From: Nitrosopumilaceae archaeon
GTDB taxonomy: Archaea; Thermoproteota; Nitrososphaeria; Nitrososphaerales; Nitrosopumilaceae
Assembly (NCBI GenBank): GCA_965214835.1
Contig: CBDCCK010000002.1
Coordinates: forward strand, 256,001-320,000
DNA length: 64,000 nt
Reading direction: 5' to 3'
Part shown: positions 1,552 through 57,737 of the stretch, in pieces
Position numbering within the stretch: position 1 is the stretch's first letter
Layout: each line of letters opens with the position of its first letter
Translations under genes and position numbers: made by a program
Notes under the pieces: model-generated
Databases searched by the model: none
What the model was told of the DNA's origin: nothing
Seen by the model: only the letters and a program-made list of their open reading frames with translations

Positions 1552-2007
1552 ATGGAGGAGGGAGAAATCGCGCCCAGCTTTGAGCTGCAGGATCAAGACG
1601 GAAGCCGCGTATCCCTTGAGTCATTCCGGGGCAGGGAAAACGTAGTGCTCTGCTTTTATCCCAAAAACCACATCTTTGGATGCCCCTCAAGGAAGGTCTT
1701 CAAAATGGCTGAAAGCGTAGTTGCCTCATATCCGGACATTCGGTCTGCTGGATCGGCCTTGTTTGCCATTTCAATTGACACCGTAGACTCTCAGAAAAAA
1801 TTTGTTGATGAATACTCCATCCCATATGCGCATCTGAGCGATCCCTCAAAGGATGTCTGCAGGCAGTACGCCGGACTGAACATAGCCGGCATGGCAAAAA
1901 GGGCCACCTTTATCATAGACAAAGCGGGAAAAATCCGCAGAATCTTCCGCCAAGCGAACGCCGACAGTCATGGACGGGAGATCGTCTCTGCCCTAAGGCA
2001 GCTTTGA
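1552..2007 (+). CDS. peroxiredoxin (BCP/AhpC-TSA family)
   Basis: APSFELQDQDG..VSL, FYPK..IFGC, RATFIIDKAGKIR motifs. Confidence 0.85.
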   Translation: MEEGEIAPSFELQDQDGSRVSLESFRGRENVVLCFYPKNHIFGCPSRKVFKMAESVVASYPDIRSAGSALFAISIDTVDSQKKFVDEYSIPYAHLSDPSKDVCRQYAGLNIAGMAKRATFIIDKAGKIRRIFRQANADSHGREIVSALRQL

Positions 2008-2012
2008 TGCAC

Positions 2013-2102
2013 GTAGGAGCTTGCCCCTCCAGAAAATACGGCGTGGGGAGCATGGTGATCAAGGCCTTGGCCGGCAGTGTCGCCTAGGGGGCAAACCCTT
2101 AC
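2013..2102 (+). repeat. ~90-bp MITE-like repeat, family A, copy 1
   Basis: Arms GTAGGAGCTTGCCCC / GGGGCAAACCCTTAC; flanking direct repeat TGATGCAC / TGATGCCC; interior shared with the other copies. Confidence 0.85.
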
Positions 2103-2154
2103 TGATGCCCCTCTCAAAAGTATAAATAATTAGCCTATTTCTGAAGATTCAGAT

Positions 2155-2706
2155 TTGCTAGACCTGGTGGCCAAGAAACTATTCCTGACTCGTGGAAGAG
2201 GAGTCCACGAGGATCGCCTGACTAGCTTTGAGTATGCCTTGCGTGATGCCGGAATTGCAGGCACAAACCTCGTGCTGATCTCAAGCATCTTCCCGCCAAA
2301 CGCAAGATTGATCTCAAAGTCGCAGGGACTCAAGGAAATCAGCGCCGGGCAGATTCTCTTTACGATATACTCCAAAAATCAGACCAACGAGCCCCATAGG
2401 CTGTGCGGCGCATCCGTTGGAATCGCAAGGCCTGCCGATCCCAAACGCTACGGGTATCTCTCCGAGTACGACTCGTTTGGGCAAAATGAAAAGCAGGCAG
2501 GCGACTATGCAGAGGACATTGCAGCACAGATGCTTGCATCCTCGCTGGGCATACCGTTTGATGTCGACAAGAACTGGGACGAAAAGCGCCAGCAGTGGAA
2601 CGTGTCAGGACAGATCTACAAGACCCAGAACATCACGCAGACTGCAAAGGGCGACAAGGATGGAAGGTGGACGACCGTTTTTGCCGCCGCGGTGCTGCTG
2701 CTCTAG
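2155..2706 (+). CDS. pdaD: pyruvoyl-dependent arginine decarboxylase
   Basis: SFEYALRDAGIAGTNLVLISSIFPP with the SS self-cleavage site, GYLSEY, WTTVFAAAV. Confidence 0.9.
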   Translation: MLDLVAKKLFLTRGRGVHEDRLTSFEYALRDAGIAGTNLVLISSIFPPNARLISKSQGLKEISAGQILFTIYSKNQTNEPHRLCGASVGIARPADPKRYGYLSEYDSFGQNEKQAGDYAEDIAAQMLASSLGIPFDVDKNWDEKRQQWNVSGQIYKTQNITQTAKGDKDGRWTTVFAAAVLLL

Positions 2707-3872
2707 GGGCCCCTCCGGTATCCCTTGAGGTAAAACCCGGCAGCCGCAGCTGCAAAAATTGCTATGATTGCCACGACTGCGATTGATTCGTCGACCTTCA
2801 ACGGCGCCTCGCCCGGGTTGATCTGCGCCCCATCCCCAATCGCGCCGAATGTCAGTGCCAGCTCGTCGCCATTTGCGGACGTCCTTGTCCCAAACAGATA
2901 CTTTGCCTCGATCTTCGTTCCGCTTGTGGCATCAAACACCCACCCGTTTTGTCTAAACTCCGTGGGAATCGTCTGGCCGTCAACCTCCCTCGTCGGAATC
3001 AGACTCGAGTCATGGTCTTTTAGCTCTATTTGCTCGGGTGACAGGATAGTTATCTGTACGATTGAATTGAGTGGGTAGAAGCCGCCCGCAAAATAGTTTG
3101 ATCTCTCGATACTGTCAACTAGGAGGTACTCTAGGGGCCCAAACTGATTCGTGTCCTCCGCTCCGCCGTACTCCGTTGCGACCCTGATTTGAAACAGTGA
3201 CGTTCCCTGGGTAGGTATTATCGACAGTGCCATATGCGCGTTCTCGTGTGCAGAGATTGCAGTCCCCACGTCAAAGAACCCCCCGGCATTTCTAATTTGC
3301 CCGGCTATTGTCGAGGATGCTATTTTTTGATACATCGAGTACGTGTCTTCCTGCGGCATCGTATACACTGCAGAGACCACGTCCCTTCCTGAAACCGCCC
3401 CTGATGTTTCCAGTATCAGGTTGATTGCGTCCCTATGGTGTAAAAAGCTTGAGTGATACTCTGCATCGGTGTCAAAAACGGAGTTTAGCCTGTCTATTAG
3501 CCTGTCCCCGTTTTCCTTTGCGGCGTCTTGTATCTTGATAATGTTGGTATCCTCCGGGGTCCTTGCTATGTTTACCAGAATGCAGCTCTCATCAACCACC
3601 CCCAGCACGCCGCATCCCTCCTGGTTGGTCAGGATCACAGACACAATCCTAGGGTTGTCCACGATGTCCTGGTTCAGATCGCTTGGAACCAAAATTTCCT
3701 GATTGCTGGTACTTTGCAGCGTGATTGATGCGGTAACGTTTCCTGTCAGCGTCCTGTCTACCAAAACTTGGGCAGTCTCTTGGAACGTGGCCAGCTGCAG
3801 CTCCTGCGAATAGGCATCGCCAGCTGCAAGCCCCACCGCCAGGATCATAATCACCCCCAAAAGCCAGTACAT
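2703..3872 (-). CDS. secreted/surface protein with C-terminal TM anchor
   Basis: N-terminal signal peptide; C-terminal hydrophobic helix followed by KGYRR. Confidence 0.8.
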   Translation of the reverse strand: MYWLLGVIMILAVGLAAGDAYSQELQLATFQETAQVLVDRTLTGNVTASITLQSTSNQEILVPSDLNQDIVDNPRIVSVILTNQEGCGVLGVVDESCILVNIARTPEDTNIIKIQDAAKENGDRLIDRLNSVFDTDAEYHSSFLHHRDAINLILETSGAVSGRDVVSAVYTMPQEDTYSMYQKIASSTIAGQIRNAGGFFDVGTAISAHENAHMALSIIPTQGTSLFQIRVATEYGGAEDTNQFGPLEYLLVDSIERSNYFAGGFYPLNSIVQITILSPEQIELKDHDSSLIPTREVDGQTIPTEFRQNGWVFDATSGTKIEAKYLFGTRTSANGDELALTFGAIGDGAQINPGEAPLKVDESIAVVAIIAIFAAAAAGFYLKGYRRGP

Positions 3873-3917
3873 CAGCTGAAAAAACCCATTTTGAAATTAT
3901 TAAGGTTACGTACGGAA

Positions 3918-3983
3918 CCTGCATGACCGTGATTTTAGGATGGGTGGGTTGGTTGCTTTTACGCGCCCGCACGGTTATGAAAC
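3918..3983. repeat. ~66-bp inverted-repeat element, family B, copy 1
   Basis: TGCATGACCGTG / CACGGTTATGAA ends; interior ATTTTAGG...TTACGCG shared with 12868 and 57788. Confidence 0.6.
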
Positions 3984-4679
3984 ACACTATGGCTGGCCCC
4001 TCCCTTTTTTTATCAAAGCTGACTGTTTTTGTGGTTTTTGGCGCAGCCATGGCGGTTCTTACAAGCCACATCTATGCCCACTATTTTGCATACTTGTTTT
4101 AAATCGAATTCATAGAGTTCGAATACGTGGAAAACGTTGAAACGGGCATGAGCCGGCTTGAAGCGGCAAACCTGATCTACAGGGACTTTTCCAATACATC
4201 AAACGATGCGATCGGGGTTTGGTCTTTGGTTGGAATGTAAAGCGTCCGCTAGGCGACGTGCAAGAGTTTTACCATTGGGAGGGCTACGACAGGGCAGATG
4301 GTGCGGATTGGCGTGATCCCGCAGACGATGGGAGAACCTGTCTTGACTACAGGCTTGTCGACATAACGCAGCAAAACGTCGTCGGCTATTTTGACCCATG
4401 GTTACGACTGAAAGCCTTTGATCATCAAAAAGCGCATTCCTGCGTAATTCATACCCATATGTGCAGTTAAGTGAAATGTAGGTCGGATTGTTGTTCCTGT
4501 CTTGTCATTGAGGCGTAGCGCATCTTGTCCGGTTTCTTTTTTGCTCGATTTTTTGGTACATTTCACTTAGCTGAAAGGTGGAGAAGGTTGAAAGAGAGAA
4601 CCGGCAGCTGTAAAGCGAACGCCAAGCGGCTTTCCACCGCACTTATCATGTGCGTACCTTCTGCCGGATCCTGCTGCAC

Positions 4680-5312
4680 CTAGATCTCCATCTTGGTCTT
4701 TATCTTGGATATCTCGTTTTCCAGCTTTTGAAACCTAGAATCTAGCATGTCGCTGACGTTGGAGGACAGCTGGCGTATCTCCCCTATCGTCTGATCCTGC
4801 TTGTCCAGCATCTGATCCTGCTTGTCCAGCATCTGATCCTGCTTGTCCAGCATCTGATCCTGCTTGTCCAGCATCTGATCCTGCTTGTCCAGCATCTGAT
4901 CCTGCTTCGAATCTATGGATTTTAAATACATGGAGCCGGTACTGAACCCCTTGGTGGTCTCATTCACAAGGATGTGCATCATTTTAAGAAGCATTTGGTT
5001 CTCTGGCGACACGTTCTTTGGCACCTCCTCGTCTAGCCCGTCATGTTTTATGCGAAAAGTCGGGTACTGGCTTGCACCTTCTGAATACTCGGATCGGATG
5101 TTTTTGATCAGGACGGGCCTTGGAAGGTTTCTTATGGATTCGAGCATTGCGTCGATGTCCTCGCGTCTTCCCTCACACACAATCTCGACTGTGCCGTCCT
5201 CTAGGTTCTTGACGTATCCGTGAATCCCGCGCTGCGTCGCCTCTGCCTGCACGAGGTAGCGGAGTCCGACTCCTTGGACTGTTCCTTCAAGTAAGAATGC
5301 GGCCCTTTGCAT
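4680..5312 (-). CDS. acylphosphatase-domain protein with C-terminal heptad-repeat coiled coil
   Basis: GTVQGVGLR, GYVKNLEDGTVEI acylphosphatase motifs; (KQDQMLD)n repeat. Confidence 0.85.
   Translation of the reverse strand: MQRAAFLLEGTVQGVGLRYLVQAEATQRGIHGYVKNLEDGTVEIVCEGRREDIDAMLESIRNLPRPVLIKNIRSEYSEGASQYPTFRIKHDGLDEEVPKNVSPENQMLLKMMHILVNETTKGFSTGSMYLKSIDSKQDQMLDKQDQMLDKQDQMLDKQDQMLDKQDQMLDKQDQTIGEIRQLSSNVSDMLDSRFQKLENEISKIKTKMEI
4791..4907. repeat. 21-bp perfect tandem repeat (5 full units plus 12 bp), coding
   Basis: CTGATCCTGCTTGTCCAGCAT repeated with no spacers. Confidence 0.95.
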
Positions 5313-11836: not shown

Positions 11837-11926
11837 GCAAGAGTTTACCCCTCCCCCCGGGATACGGCGTGGCAGGCGTGATCATGAAGGCTCCGGCCAG
11901 CAGTGTCGCCTAGGGGGTAAACTCAC
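11837..11926 (+). repeat. ~90-bp MITE-like repeat, family A, copy 3
   Basis: GCAAGAGTTTACCCC / GGGGGTAAACTCAC. Confidence 0.9.
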
Positions 11927-11935
11927 CAAAACCGA

Positions 11936-12023
11936 GGAAGAGTCCACCCCCAGGCGACAGCGCCGGCCAGTGCCTTGATCACCATGCCCACCACGTCATG
12001 TCTTTGAGGGGGCAAACTCCTAC
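11936..12023 (-). repeat. ~90-bp MITE-like repeat, family A, copy 4 (inverted, adjacent to copy 3)
   Basis: Reverse-orientation copy flanked by a perfect 9-bp direct repeat CAAAACCGA (11927-11935 and 12024-12032). Confidence 0.85.
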
Positions 12024-20898: not shown

Positions 20899-20989
20899 GC
20901 AAGAGTCTGCCCCCGAGGCGACACTTCCGGCCAAGGCTCTGATCACAATGCTCCCCACGCCGTATTTTCTGGGGAGGGTAAACTCTTAC
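20899..20989 (-). repeat. ~90-bp MITE-like repeat, family A, copy 5
   Basis: GCAAGAGTCTGCCCCC / GGGTAAACTCTTAC; flanks GAGTCTTTG / CGGTCTTTG. Confidence 0.9.
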
Positions 20990-55209: not shown

Positions 55210-55616
55210 TCATGAACAGCTTATGACTGTTGCATATCCGTCGTTATAGGCGGTGTTTTCCACAATGTCGTTCTTTACCGTCTTCCGAGTGTACTGGTTT
55301 CCAAGATAGTGCGAGTCCTGTGCCGTGCTCCAGCAACTGCCGGAAAACCCACCTGCGACCTCATCTTCTGCACTATCAAACCCCTTCAGGGAGTGATACA
55401 ATCCACCATATGTGAATATGTCATATTCCGTATAGTCTGGCCCGGAGCTGGAGATGTGCTGAATGTCGATGCTGTCCCAGGGAAGCTTGAAATTCAGGTC
55501 TTCCTCGTGTGCGGAACCGATCATGGAATCATGATTGATCTCCCATGCCCTGATGTGATACTGGTCGCAAAGCCCTCCCGTGTTGTCGAAATAGTGCCTG
55601 TCCTGTTCTGTCCATG
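55210..55616 (-). pseudogene. 5'-truncated gene (LssY C-terminal-like motifs)
   Basis: QYHIRAW, SAHEE, FDSAEDEVA, NDGYA; the upstream ORF part is family A repeat sequence. Confidence 0.5.
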
Positions 55617-55755
55617 GTAAGAGTTTACCCCTACCCAGAGATACGGCGTGGCAGGCGTGATCATGCAGGCTCCGACCAGCAGTGTCGCCTGAGGGGTAAA
55701 CTCCCATATCAAATTATGCTGATTCCCTGCATGGGCCACTGCGAGTGTGCGTTTC

Positions 55756-56853
55756 TCAGTCAGACGCATTCACTAGACATTCCATCATTTTATACTTTCT
55801 CTGCGTGAGCTCCTTGTTCTGCGTGCGGTATTCCGTTTCGTTAGTCAGCATGTACCAGATCACCTTTGCAAGCGTTCTGGCCACTGCTACCTTGGCCTTT
55901 TGCTTTCCCCTGCGTCGGGCTATTCTGTCGTACCTTTCACCCATCCTGCTGTCGTGCTGTACCGCTACCGTGGCCGCGTTGACAATGGCGTATCGAAGCC
56001 ATGCAGAACCCGTCCTGGTTATTGGTCCGCCCCGTATGGTCTCGCCGCTGTTGCGGTGTGACGGTACCAGGCCCGCGTATGCTGCAAGCTTTTCTGCGGT
56101 GGGAAACCTTCGTATGTCCACTATTTCGGATATTATGGCAAGTGCGGTAACGTGGCTTATTCCCGGAACCGTCATCATGAGCCTGGTCCTGGGATCGTCC
56201 CTGCAGATGGCGGCAATCTTGCGCTCAAATCCTGTCGCCTGCTGCTGCAGCATCTCAATCCTGTCCAGTCCCATGCCTATCATCGTCCTGTCCATCTCCG
56301 ACATGTCATGGTCCCCGCAGTCCCTGCAAAGCTCGTGCATCCACTGGATTCCCTGTACGGTGAACCTGCCCTTGGTGGGCGGTATTGCCGCGTATTTTGC
56401 AAGTATGGCAGTTATCTTGTTCTTCTCGCCGGTGCCCATTCGTACCGCGTCGATCCTGGCCCTTGAAAGGAAGCGCAGATCCCTGTAGTATCTGTCGGGC
56501 ACGAACGACTCGTACACCATGTCCATCCTGAGCAGATTTGCCAGTACCTCCGAGTCTACTTTATCATCCTTTAGCTTTGCCTGCGCTATTGCCCGGGTCT
56601 TGGCAGGATACGCCAGCTGCGTGTCTATCTTGTTGTCCTCAAGCATGTCATGCGGCAGGATCCAGTAGTTTCCCGTCGCCTCACAGACTGCACGGATCTT
56701 GTGTTTTGCGTATTTCTTTTTGATCTGCCCAATAAATCCCCTTATTCCGTCGGCCGTGTTGGAAAACTCCGTCTGTTCCAGGGTCTTGGCAGCCCGGCCC
56801 TTGATGGCTGCCACGCACGTCTTTTTATGAACGTCTATTCCTATGTTGATCAT
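55756..56853 (-). CDS. IS110-family DEDD recombinase/transposase
   Basis: IGIDVHK, CEATG, KDDKVDS (DEDD); YAGLVPSHRNSG catalytic Ser; GGAGGTGA SD precedes ATG at 56853. Confidence 0.95.
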   Translation of the reverse strand: MINIGIDVHKKTCVAAIKGRAAKTLEQTEFSNTADGIRGFIGQIKKKYAKHKIRAVCEATGNYWILPHDMLEDNKIDTQLAYPAKTRAIAQAKLKDDKVDSEVLANLLRMDMVYESFVPDRYYRDLRFLSRARIDAVRMGTGEKNKITAILAKYAAIPPTKGRFTVQGIQWMHELCRDCGDHDMSEMDRTMIGMGLDRIEMLQQQATGFERKIAAICRDDPRTRLMMTVPGISHVTALAIISEIVDIRRFPTAEKLAAYAGLVPSHRNSGETIRGGPITRTGSAWLRYAIVNAATVAVQHDSRMGERYDRIARRRGKQKAKVAVARTLAKVIWYMLTNETEYRTQNKELTQRKYKMMECLVNASD

Positions 56854-56889
56854 TATATCACCTCCCTGCTGATCAAAGTGTGTGTGCCC

Positions 56890-57025
56890 AACTGTGCGGA
56901 AAACTCCCATTCGCCCTCGATGTGGCATTTCGTTGTCCGCCTACTCTGAGCCAGTCTCTTACGCGCCCTCATACGTGGCAAGTTTACTTCGGCTCTTGGG
57001 CCCAACATGGAATATATGGCATCCG
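56890..57025 (-). ncRNA. bridge/seek RNA of the IS110 element (ends approximate)
   Basis: Two stem-internal loop-stem units (GAGCC/GGCTC and GCGGA/TCCGC, each with inner TGCC/GGCG) whose loops match the target and donor sequences. Confidence 0.85.
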
Positions 57026-57116
57026 CTACAGATAAGATTTGATATAACGTCTCTTACGGTGTCAGGGGAAGAATCAAAAATTCGTGACCAAGGCAAATAA
57101 AAAAAAGGTGTGAGCT

Positions 57117-57737
57117 TTATTGTGCCTGGGAGAGCCTGCTGTTGACCTCGTCCCAGTTGACCACATTCCACCAAGCAGATATGTAGTCCGGACGCTTGTT
57201 CTGATACTTTAGATAGTACGCGTGCTCCCAGACATCACATCCAAGCAGTGGAACCAGCCCCTCAGTCCTAGGACTGGTCTGGTTCGGCATTGTTCTGAAC
57301 TCTACCTTGGAGGCAGACGGATTGTAGACCAGCCATCCCCAGCCACTGCCCTGAATGACTGCAGTACTTGACGAGAACTTTTCCTTAAAGTCTGCAAAGC
57401 CTCCAAAGGATGCATTGATTGCGTCTGCAACCGCTCCCCCCGGCTCTCCGCCACCGTTTGGCTTCATGTTGTTCCAGAACAGCCTGTGGTTGTCGTATCC
57501 GCCGCCGTTGAAATTGACTGCCCCCCTTTGTGCCTCGGGGATCTGATTCAGATCAGATAGGATTTCGACAATGTCCTTGTTCTGGACATCCTCAGGACAG
57601 CTCTCCAAGGCCGCGTTTAGCTTGTTGGTGTATGTCTGATGATGCTTGGAGTGGTGAATCTCCATGGTGCGTGCGTCAAGATGCGGCTCTAGCGCATCGT
57701 AGGCATACGGCACCTCTGGAAGTGTGTATTTTCCCAT
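57117..57737 (-). CDS. sod: Fe/Mn superoxide dismutase
   Basis: IHHSKHH, NHRLFW, GSGWGWL, DVWEHAYY. Confidence 0.97.
   Translation of the reverse strand: MGKYTLPEVPYAYDALEPHLDARTMEIHHSKHHQTYTNKLNAALESCPEDVQNKDIVEILSDLNQIPEAQRGAVNFNGGGYDNHRLFWNNMKPNGGGEPGGAVADAINASFGGFADFKEKFSSSTAVIQGSGWGWLVYNPSASKVEFRTMPNQTSPRTEGLVPLLGCDVWEHAYYLKYQNKRPDYISAWWNVVNWDEVNSRLSQAQ

Follow-up and report, generated by a model that had tools for sequence, protein, structure and literature searches.

A probable RNA-guided insertion sequence of the IS1111 type in the terminal arm of an IS66-related MITE of a Nitrosopumilaceae archaeon

What directs an insertion sequence (IS) into the terminal inverted repeat (TIR) of another mobile element? 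This question is raised by a locus in a 64,000-nt stretch of the genome of a Nitrosopumilaceae archaeon (GenBank assembly GCA_965214835.1, contig CBDCCK010000002.1, positions 256,001 to 320,000 of the forward strand). This whole stretch is called the window below, and its own coordinates are used unless a contig handle such as C2 is given. Here, the right arm of a MITE (miniature inverted-repeat transposable element), copy 6 of a family designated A, is split by a 1350-bp IS with a DEDD transposase at 55703–57052 on the minus strand. The IS is very probably an RNA-guided element of the IS110 family in the ISfinder sense and of the IS1111 type, with guides matched to the tips of IS66-type arms, and it sits in one such arm.

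The interrupted MITE is 90 bp long and, with the IS inside, spans 55617–57057. Its left arm, GTAAGAGTTTACCCC (55617–55631), is followed by a body of about 60 nt. On the plus strand, the left junction side reads GGGGTAAACT at 55693–55702, and the IS then starts at 55703 with CCCATATCAAATT. At the far junction, the IS ends with GATATAACGTCT at 57052 and is followed by CTTAC at 57053–57057. In-silico excision of 55703–57052 gives GGGGTAAACTCTTAC, which is the exact inverse of the left arm. The junction sequences thus bear out a first-pass annotation made from the letters of the window, which had placed the IS exactly inside this arm and had expected excision to restore the arm. The 12-mer GTAAACTCTTAC was also located as that annotation claimed, at 20978 and, as the reverse complement, at 55617. 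The trinucleotide CTC is common to both IS junctions, and the placement of the cut is free by 1–3 nt either way. Therefore, the insertion of the IS generated no duplication.

Family A was characterized by an iterated nhmmer search, which gave 145 matches in the 3.22-Mb genome to an element of about 90 bp with 15-bp arms. Seven copies lie in the window (at 2014, 8373, 11839, 11938, 20900, 55618, and 61909), and they show the arm variants quoted in the first-pass annotation. Flanking 8-bp target duplications with at least seven matching positions were seen in 26 of 57 near-full copies, compared with 20 of 2000 mismatched flank pairs. As this is well above the null, the copies of family A are true MITEs. 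About 20 of the matches start at profile position 17 and share an identical upstream sequence. They belong to an autonomous IS about 1.52 kb long, of which they form the right ends; this is the transposon with the same ends that the earlier reading had proposed to look for. One example, at C2:2863125-2864644, has the same arms as the MITE and a 9-bp duplication. The parent encodes a 474-aa protein in a single open reading frame (ORF) with a match to DDE_Tnp_IS66 (PF03050, 1.6e-23), while its zf-IS66 match is below the cut-off (20 vs 27.3 bits). It resembles the IS66 family in this transposase and in the target duplications of 8–9 bp; what sets it apart is its single ORF, its length of about 1.5 kb, and the abundance of its 90-bp derivatives. 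The ends of IS66-family elements typically begin with GTAA, and so do those of the parent. Among the nhmmer matches across the genome, none of the approximately 20 right ends of the parent is interrupted. Two copies of family A in the window (11839–11924 on the plus strand and 11938–12022 on the minus strand) are placed tail to tail, 13 nt apart and in opposite orientation.

The number of potential targets is large. On both strands of the genome, the 12-mer occurs 45 times perfectly and 97 times with one mismatch, against 0.33 and 10 occurrences in mononucleotide shuffles (mean of three). Most of these sites lie in small non-coding elements, and their abundance there fits a safe-harbour strategy. 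The tips of the arms vary (CTTAC in 45, CATAC in 20, and CGTAC in 18 cases), and the arm variants include GTAAGCTC and GCAAACCC. The outer heptamer is common to no fewer than three families of arms, A, B, and C.

Do other copies of the IS occupy the same position? By tblastn, the IS in the window is the only intact copy of its subfamily in the genome. Two near-full copies are frameshifted or disrupted, and the remainder are about 10 fragments; identities are roughly 85–98%. Most fragments end against other multicopy repeats. The subfamily has 13 left ends, on the side of the putative RNA, and five right ends in the genome. The five bases before the left end are GTAAG in five copies, GTATG in seven, and GCATG in one, and GTA[A/T]GAG is found at 12 of the 13 outer junctions. 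The right-end junctions are the informative ones, since they adjoin the inner part of the target. All five are in IS66-type arms, at the same relative position and in the same orientation. Three of them (the window, C2:2364440, and C2:2639226) are in arms of family A. The right end at C2:1652020 is in an IS66 element of family B, in which the arm 19-mer occurs 26 times and the ORF matches PF03050 (6.4e-18). The one at C2:962977 is in an arm of family C, GGGGACGT[G/A]ACC, whose motif occurs 107 times. The first-pass annotation had supposed that the TIR of family A is the target, and had noted that a majority of copies lying outside such arms would speak against this. No such majority was found. 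The target is wider than was supposed: it is the conserved outer end of the TIRs of IS66-family elements generally, in families A, B, and C.

Other candidates for arm use were discarded. Four arm-adjacent loci resembling IS ends (C2:513110, C2:2177944, C2:2045334, and C2:3203202) contain no end of a window-type IS. The flanks of a nine-copy IS110-family group, with about 31–35% protein identity, are of the TAG type, and this group makes no use of the arms. Elements of this nine-copy group have themselves inserted into window-type left ends, which are cut after nucleotides 28–30 at C2:639953 and C2:1909309. At C2:1909309, only about 10 nt of the left end of the inserted element remain, fused to its right end. 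These loci are cases of IS-in-IS nesting, two levels deep. At C2:1916995-1917670 and C2:1962546-1963221, which are identical copies resulting from a segmental duplication, a complete right arm of MITE A abuts an internally deleted IS of a second subfamily. The register of this junction is unlike that of the window type.

The sequence upstream of the transposase gene could account for the choice of target. Within the 199 nt that separate the start codon from the left end lie two modules of similar build. In each, an outer stem encloses a 5' segment that is single-stranded, then a small hairpin, which is conserved, and then a 3' segment (Table 1). One module carries two candidate target guides. 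As the 3' target guide is identical to the left junction, it would pair with the other strand from the 5' guide. The AC following the 3' guide sits at the position of the handshake guide (PMC11208158). In the putative donor module, the 3' segment ATGGGAG with the following TTT equals the right end ATGGG, AG, and the first three flank bases TTT, and the 5' segment CAACG resembles the left end AACGT. The sequence ATGGGAG is kept in all of the 11 aligned sequences. In a second subfamily, the donor segments AACG and AGC track the left ends ACGTT and ACGCT, respectively.

The predicted stems are conserved. The outer stem of the target loop pairs in 11/11 aligned sequences at five positions, with double changes between CG and UA at two of them. 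The inner stem of the same loop shows double changes between GC and AU, and four inner positions are paired in 11/11. Taken together, the four helices are paired in 10–11 of the 11 sequences at core positions, with a 1-nt alignment gap allowed in one helix, and double-sided changes are seen at four positions. RNAalifold with the 11 sequences recovered the stems of the target loop and the inner donor hairpin. It missed the outer donor stem, which was set by hand and its pairs counted; this stem looks unpaired in three rows of the second subfamily only through the 1-nt gap.

Covariation between guides and flanks is seen within the genome. The copy at C2:962977 has the 5' guide GTAACCT and the flank AGGTTAC, compared with GTAAACT and AGTTTAC in the window, and copies with GTATGAG as the 3' guide have GTATGAG flanks (C2:964322 and C2:1650574). 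The same relationship extends to two other genomes of the same genus (G003 and G004), where relatives with 57–60% protein identity have the same architecture and other guides. In G003, the 5' guide CTATTCT stands beside the flank AGAATAG, and the 3' guide CCGGCAGAC equals the flank CCGGCAG followed by AC. In G004, the 5' guide AATTAAC stands beside the flank GTTAATT, and the 3' guide GTAATAGAC equals the flank GTAATAG followed by AC. An RNA guide matching the arm had been proposed in the first reading, and segments of this kind, changing along with the flanks, are what was found. The guide–arm matches, this covariation, and the conserved stems suggest that the 5' non-coding region encodes a two-loop guide RNA.

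Two observations on the relatives can be added. A sister subfamily with about 70–73% DNA identity has the same RNA architecture and other guides, for example GTGATCT and TTTATAG. Its loci are C2:1909552-1911286, a right end at C2:1633674, and left ends at C2:2918742, C2:1985999, C2:2921331, and C2:1917670. Two right ends and one left end of the sister subfamily are at one site, GGTTTATAG followed by ATCTCC, approximately 56 nt inside the end of an IS with about 25 copies, which by eye looks IS630-like. In the G003 relative (C3:936296-939342, around nucleotides 690–900), the left end is partly duplicated in tandem. The 3' target guide ACCGGCAGAC is the exact point where the first copy breaks off and where a complete left end begins anew; it looks as though the DNA encoding the guide, a mimic of the left junction, had acted as a recombination site.

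Table 1. Coordinates of the split MITE copy and of the IS within it, numbered along the window.
Feature	Position	Strand	Basis
Copy 6 of MITE family A as far as the CT core: left arm, body, inner right arm	55617..55702	+	nhmmer match C2 311618-311703, profile 1-86 of 90, E 2.8e-22; sequence read
Left arm GTAAGAGTTTACCCC (terminal inverted repeat); on the minus strand, a target that is intact and unoccupied	55617..55631	+	sequence read
GGGGTAAACT, inner portion of the interrupted right arm with the CT core at its end	55693..55702	+	sequence read
IS of putative IS1111 type, 1350 bp, core dinucleotide given to the left end	55703..57052	-	boundaries by alignment of copies and flanks
Right subterminal inverted repeat ATTTGATAT, then 3-nt terminal extension GGG (55703-55705)	55706..55714	-	sequence read
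DEDD transposase coding sequence, 365 aa, starting MINIGIDVHKK, preceded by GGAGGTG	55756..56853	-	PF01548 1.9e-25, PF02371 9.9e-25; NF033542
Predicted loop for donor binding, with outer stem GCGGA/UCCGC, a hairpin inside, and the segments CAACG (5') and ATGGGAG + TTT (3')	56896..56941	-	alignment pairing; minimum free energy fold
Target-binding loop of the predicted guide RNA: outer stem GAGCC/GGCUC, inner hairpin, two guide segments	56948..56995	-	pairing in alignment; minimum free energy fold with the same stems
Candidate 3' target guide CGTAAGAG plus AC	56954..56963	-	identical to the left junction (flank CGTAAGAG + first IS bases AC)
Candidate 5' target guide GTAAACT, complementary to arm AGTTTAC on the IS-sense strand	56981..56987	-	sequence match; covaries with flank
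Left subterminal inverted repeat ATATCAAAT, preceded by 7-nt terminal extension AGACGTT (57046-57052)	57037..57045	-	sequence read; relatives with the same 7-nt extension
CTTAC, the five outermost nt of the interrupted right arm	57053..57057	+	sequence read; same 5-6 nt (C[T/A]TAC) after 12/13 left ends of the subfamily

Several observations weigh against an RNA-guided element that uses these arms. The 3' guide equals the flank perfectly in only four of the 10 readable copies, and the other six differ mostly at the A/T position alone. CAACG, the 5' donor segment, matches weakly and leaves the core uncovered. The fold of the single sequence is no better than that of shuffles (z = -1.06, with 32 of 200 shuffles folding equally well). 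An Rfam scan of 55500–57200 at E<=10 gave no bridge or seek RNA family, only a sub-threshold match to sR28 (13.8 vs 39 bits), and among the 12 rows of public sequencing runs that cover part of the stretch, none is on record as RNA. After removal of the IS, MITE copy 6 is flanked by no recognizable 8-bp target duplication (the flanks are ctgtccatg on the left and GGTGTCAG on the right), and a rearrangement between copies may therefore have occurred later. The 45 perfect 12-mer sites are unoccupied, and the targeting is far from saturating. Finally, there is no sign of current movement, with one intact copy and the others broken at the identities given above.

The last two points bear on the age of the association. 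It is possible, without being probable, that the association is a fossil, in which the IS once targeted IS66-type arms, its lineage is now inactive, and the window copy is the last uninterrupted one. The single intact copy beside two broken near-full copies and about 10 fragments would be explained in this way, as would the abutment of fragments against other repeats and the empty perfect targets. In the Logan contigs of four runs, neither an empty-site joint across 55702/57053 nor a circle joint was seen, although contigs could miss rare forms, and rare excision would be invisible to them. These contigs contain one joint from 55703 to 56819, with seven other letters between, and loose ends with TTAC at 55703, which is what other copies of the MITE would give. 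The state of the window copy argues in the other direction: it has an open 365-aa frame, complete ends, and guides matching its own flanks perfectly. In addition, a 299-bp left-end fragment at C2:847832-848130 is 97.7% identical and has the same guides. This argues that the copying was not very ancient and that some of it was fairly recent.

Left-end remnants outnumber whole elements in a metagenome as well as in the genome, which holds the 13 left and five right ends. In run X1, the summed contig depth is 1800–4700 at 56862–57074, the left-end and putative RNA region, 85–480 over most of the transposase body (55868–56790), and about 55 in the flanks. This excess of left ends may be only decay.

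To which type does this RNA-guided element belong? The transposase scores 243.9 bits against NF033542 ('IS110 family RNA-guided transposase'; cut-off 140). Its start is conserved in the copies and the relatives, and its homologues have 354–359 aa. The named homologues are in Nitrosotenuis, Nitrosotalea, Nitrosopumilaceae, and Theionarchaea records, and the best plasmid matches carry only the annotation 'IS110 family transposase'. The archaeal origin asserted in the first-pass annotation holds: archaeal models of the small and large subunit rRNAs win at the rRNA locus, and the named homologues of the transposase are archaeal. The DEDD transposase domains and the site- and orientation-specific insertion without target duplication are those of the IS110 family in the ISfinder sense. 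IS1111 elements usually have subterminal inverted repeats of 11–13 bp with terminal extensions of 7 bp at the left and 3 bp at the right, and in their seekRNA the complement of the top strand lies 5' of the match to the bottom strand (PMC11187229). In the window copy, the subterminal repeat is 9 bp and perfect, shorter than this usual length. It is 11 bp and perfect in the G003 relative (12 bp with one mismatch) and 11 bp in the G004 relative. Extensions of 7 nt and 3 nt, with the core assigned to the left end, are also present in both relatives. The IS is best filed as IS1111-type because the order of its guides and its 7/3 extensions are as described in PMC11187229, together with the presence of subterminal repeats, at 9 bp in the window copy. 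The assignment is made with the non-coding region upstream: 199 nt are upstream and 53 nt downstream of the coding sequence, so that the long downstream non-coding region of IS1111 elements is lacking. In IS1111 elements, this region is usually downstream, with ISMtsp17 as a rare upstream exception and with ISHvo10 and ISAcp5 having non-coding sequence on both sides (PMC11187229).

Such an upstream region is the layout of the IS110 group (PMC11208160, PMC11187229), and the IS could accordingly be considered an IS621-like element with a bridge RNA. In that case, the CT core would be on the RNA-sense strand and the 5' guide would be the flank upstream of the left end. A left-end-encoded RNA with target and donor internal loops can indeed be read from the conserved stems, the compensatory changes, and the guide and donor matches. 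With the target read from the opposite strand, both the arrangement in two loops and the bases at the handshake position agree with the IS621 scheme. The IS621-like assignment is improbable, as the junction bases on the RNA-sense strand are GAG, not CT, and the flank upstream of the left end equals the 3' guide, not the 5' guide, which is the IS1111 order (PMC11187229). The subterminal repeats and the 7/3 extensions are IS1111 features, too. The notion of a novel 'mirror' bridge RNA with a reversed guide order was dropped, since this order is the norm of IS1111 elements according to PMC11187229.

It is highly unlikely that the transposase protein, rather than an RNA, recognizes the IS66-type arm. 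The arms are conserved enough to be a protein-binding site, and no RNA has been observed for the window IS. However, both inside the genome and in a comparison of three genomes, the guides change along with the flanks and the stems that face the protein remain the same, and RNA guidance was demonstrated by experiment for both the IS1111 and the IS110 types (PMC11187229, PMC11208160). It is hardly credible, finally, that the heptamer GTA[A/T]GAG belongs to the IS, the proximity of MITEs being a coincidence or the result of MITEs inserting next to it: the heptamer is present at 12/13 left junctions whatever lies beyond, as IS-internal sequence would be, but the MITE in the window would then miss its own tip, the right junctions abut the complementary inner arm in all five cases and in three arm families, the A/T variation mirrors the natural variation of the arm tips, and the flanks of the relatives are quite different yet match their own guides.

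For an RNA-guided IS1111-type element, the following course of transposition can be proposed. The IS would excise as a circle in which ATATGGG is joined to AGACGTT. The RNA, if made and bound by the transposase, would hold this junction of the element's own joined ends in its donor loop and an IS66-type arm in its target loop. There, two short guides would pair with opposite strands of GTAAA-CT-CTTACG, the outermost part of the TIR of IS66-family transposons and of their MITE derivatives of about 90 bp in this archaeal genome of the ammonia-oxidizer type. The DEDD/Ser recombinase would then exchange strands at CT, 5 nt from the outer tip of the arm, without duplication. The multicopy and mostly intergenic arms would offer many harmless landing sites. 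With the tip cut off, that end of the host element should be disabled for the IS66 transposase. Variant arms might be escape alleles, as the first-pass annotation had supposed.

Several bacterial elements are comparable. IS4321/IS5075 reportedly have as their target the inverted repeats at the ends of Tn21-type transposons, as stated in the title of a 2003 paper by Partridge and Hall. Besides these elements in Tn21 ends, IS621, ISPa11, and ISPpu9 are known in REP sequences. The closest precedent of the window IS is IS4321/IS5075. Both are ISs with DEDD transposases, RNA-guided in the case of IS4321/IS5075 and probably so here, at a fixed position and in a fixed orientation inside the TIR of another transposon family. 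Both have subterminal inverted repeats and asymmetric terminal extensions, which are IS1111 features (PMC11187229). Unlike IS4321/IS5075, the window IS is in an archaeon, its targets are the tips of IS66-family elements and MITEs with hundreds of sites per genome, and its putative guides are upstream, not downstream, of the transposase gene.

ISEc11, ISPa11, and ISKpn4 (PMC11187229) share the guide order, with the complement of the top strand 5' of the match to the bottom strand, and the matches overlap at the insertion point. They also share the 7-nt and 3-nt extensions, the lack of duplication, and natural reprogramming among relatives. Their non-coding region is downstream, whereas that of the window IS is upstream; the repeat of the window IS is 9 bp compared with the usual 11–13 bp, and its RNA is predicted from the sequence. 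IS621 (PMC11208160, PMC11208158) resembles the window IS in the left-end RNA with target and donor internal loops closed by conserved stems, and in guides that pair with staggered parts of both strands and overlap at the CT core. In both, each 3' segment has, after the core complement, 2–3 bases at the handshake position that match the other partner, and the target is a multicopy repeat, which is REP for IS621. In contrast to IS621, the CT core of the window IS is on the strand antisense to the RNA and the coding sequence, so that the order of the guides relative to the ends is reversed. The window IS also has subterminal repeats, and its 5' donor segment does not cover the core.

The principle of an RNA-guided IS with a DEDD transposase that settles in genomic repeats or in another transposon's ends is already established for bacteria, and the mechanism proposed here is not new. 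New aspects are that the host is an archaeon, that IS66 elements and their MITEs are the target, that a predicted RNA of the IS1111 type is placed upstream, and that the natural reprogramming is clear. A literature search turned up neither a title nor an abstract dealing with IS110/IS1111 elements that lie in IS66 ends or in archaeal MITEs, and the supplementary target tables of PMC11208160 and PMC11187229 may hold related archaeal entries.

RNA-guided recombinases of IS110/IS1111 elements are under development as programmable tools for genome writing. To our knowledge, almost all characterized RNA-guided examples of these elements are bacterial. The present IS is a compact archaeal example in which the target guides, donor segments, handshake-position bases, and natural reprogramming can all be read from the sequence. 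It would combine the polarity of IS1111 with an upstream RNA gene, a layout that appears in PMC11187229 only as a rare exception. In this IS-rich genome of an archaeon, one transposon family probably takes the ends of another, and those of the hundreds of MITEs belonging to it, as safe places to land, and this bears on how mobile elements limit each other. It can be speculated, although this is doubtful, that archaea of the ammonia-oxidizer type carry a clade of IS1111-type elements in which the guide RNA has moved upstream and which are parasites of other transposons. Their guides would have diversified after the variants of IS66 TIRs (GTAAACT for family A and GTAACCT for families B and C), and the sister subfamily would have been retargeted to the inside of an IS630-like element. 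The result would be an RNA-programmed network of ISs on ISs that caps transposon ends and may drive escape alleles.

The genome is very rich in repeats. In addition to families A, B, and C, it contains a 1110-bp IS in more than 20 copies and several further groups of the IS110 family. Its size, 3.2 Mb, is about twice that of most compared genomes of its family. Next to the interrupted MITE, an open frame without a Pfam match (55210–55616, minus strand) runs into the left arm and is possibly the remainder of a gene that lost its 5' end when the MITE inserted. On the other side, a gene for Fe/Mn superoxide dismutase is located at 57117–57737 on the minus strand.

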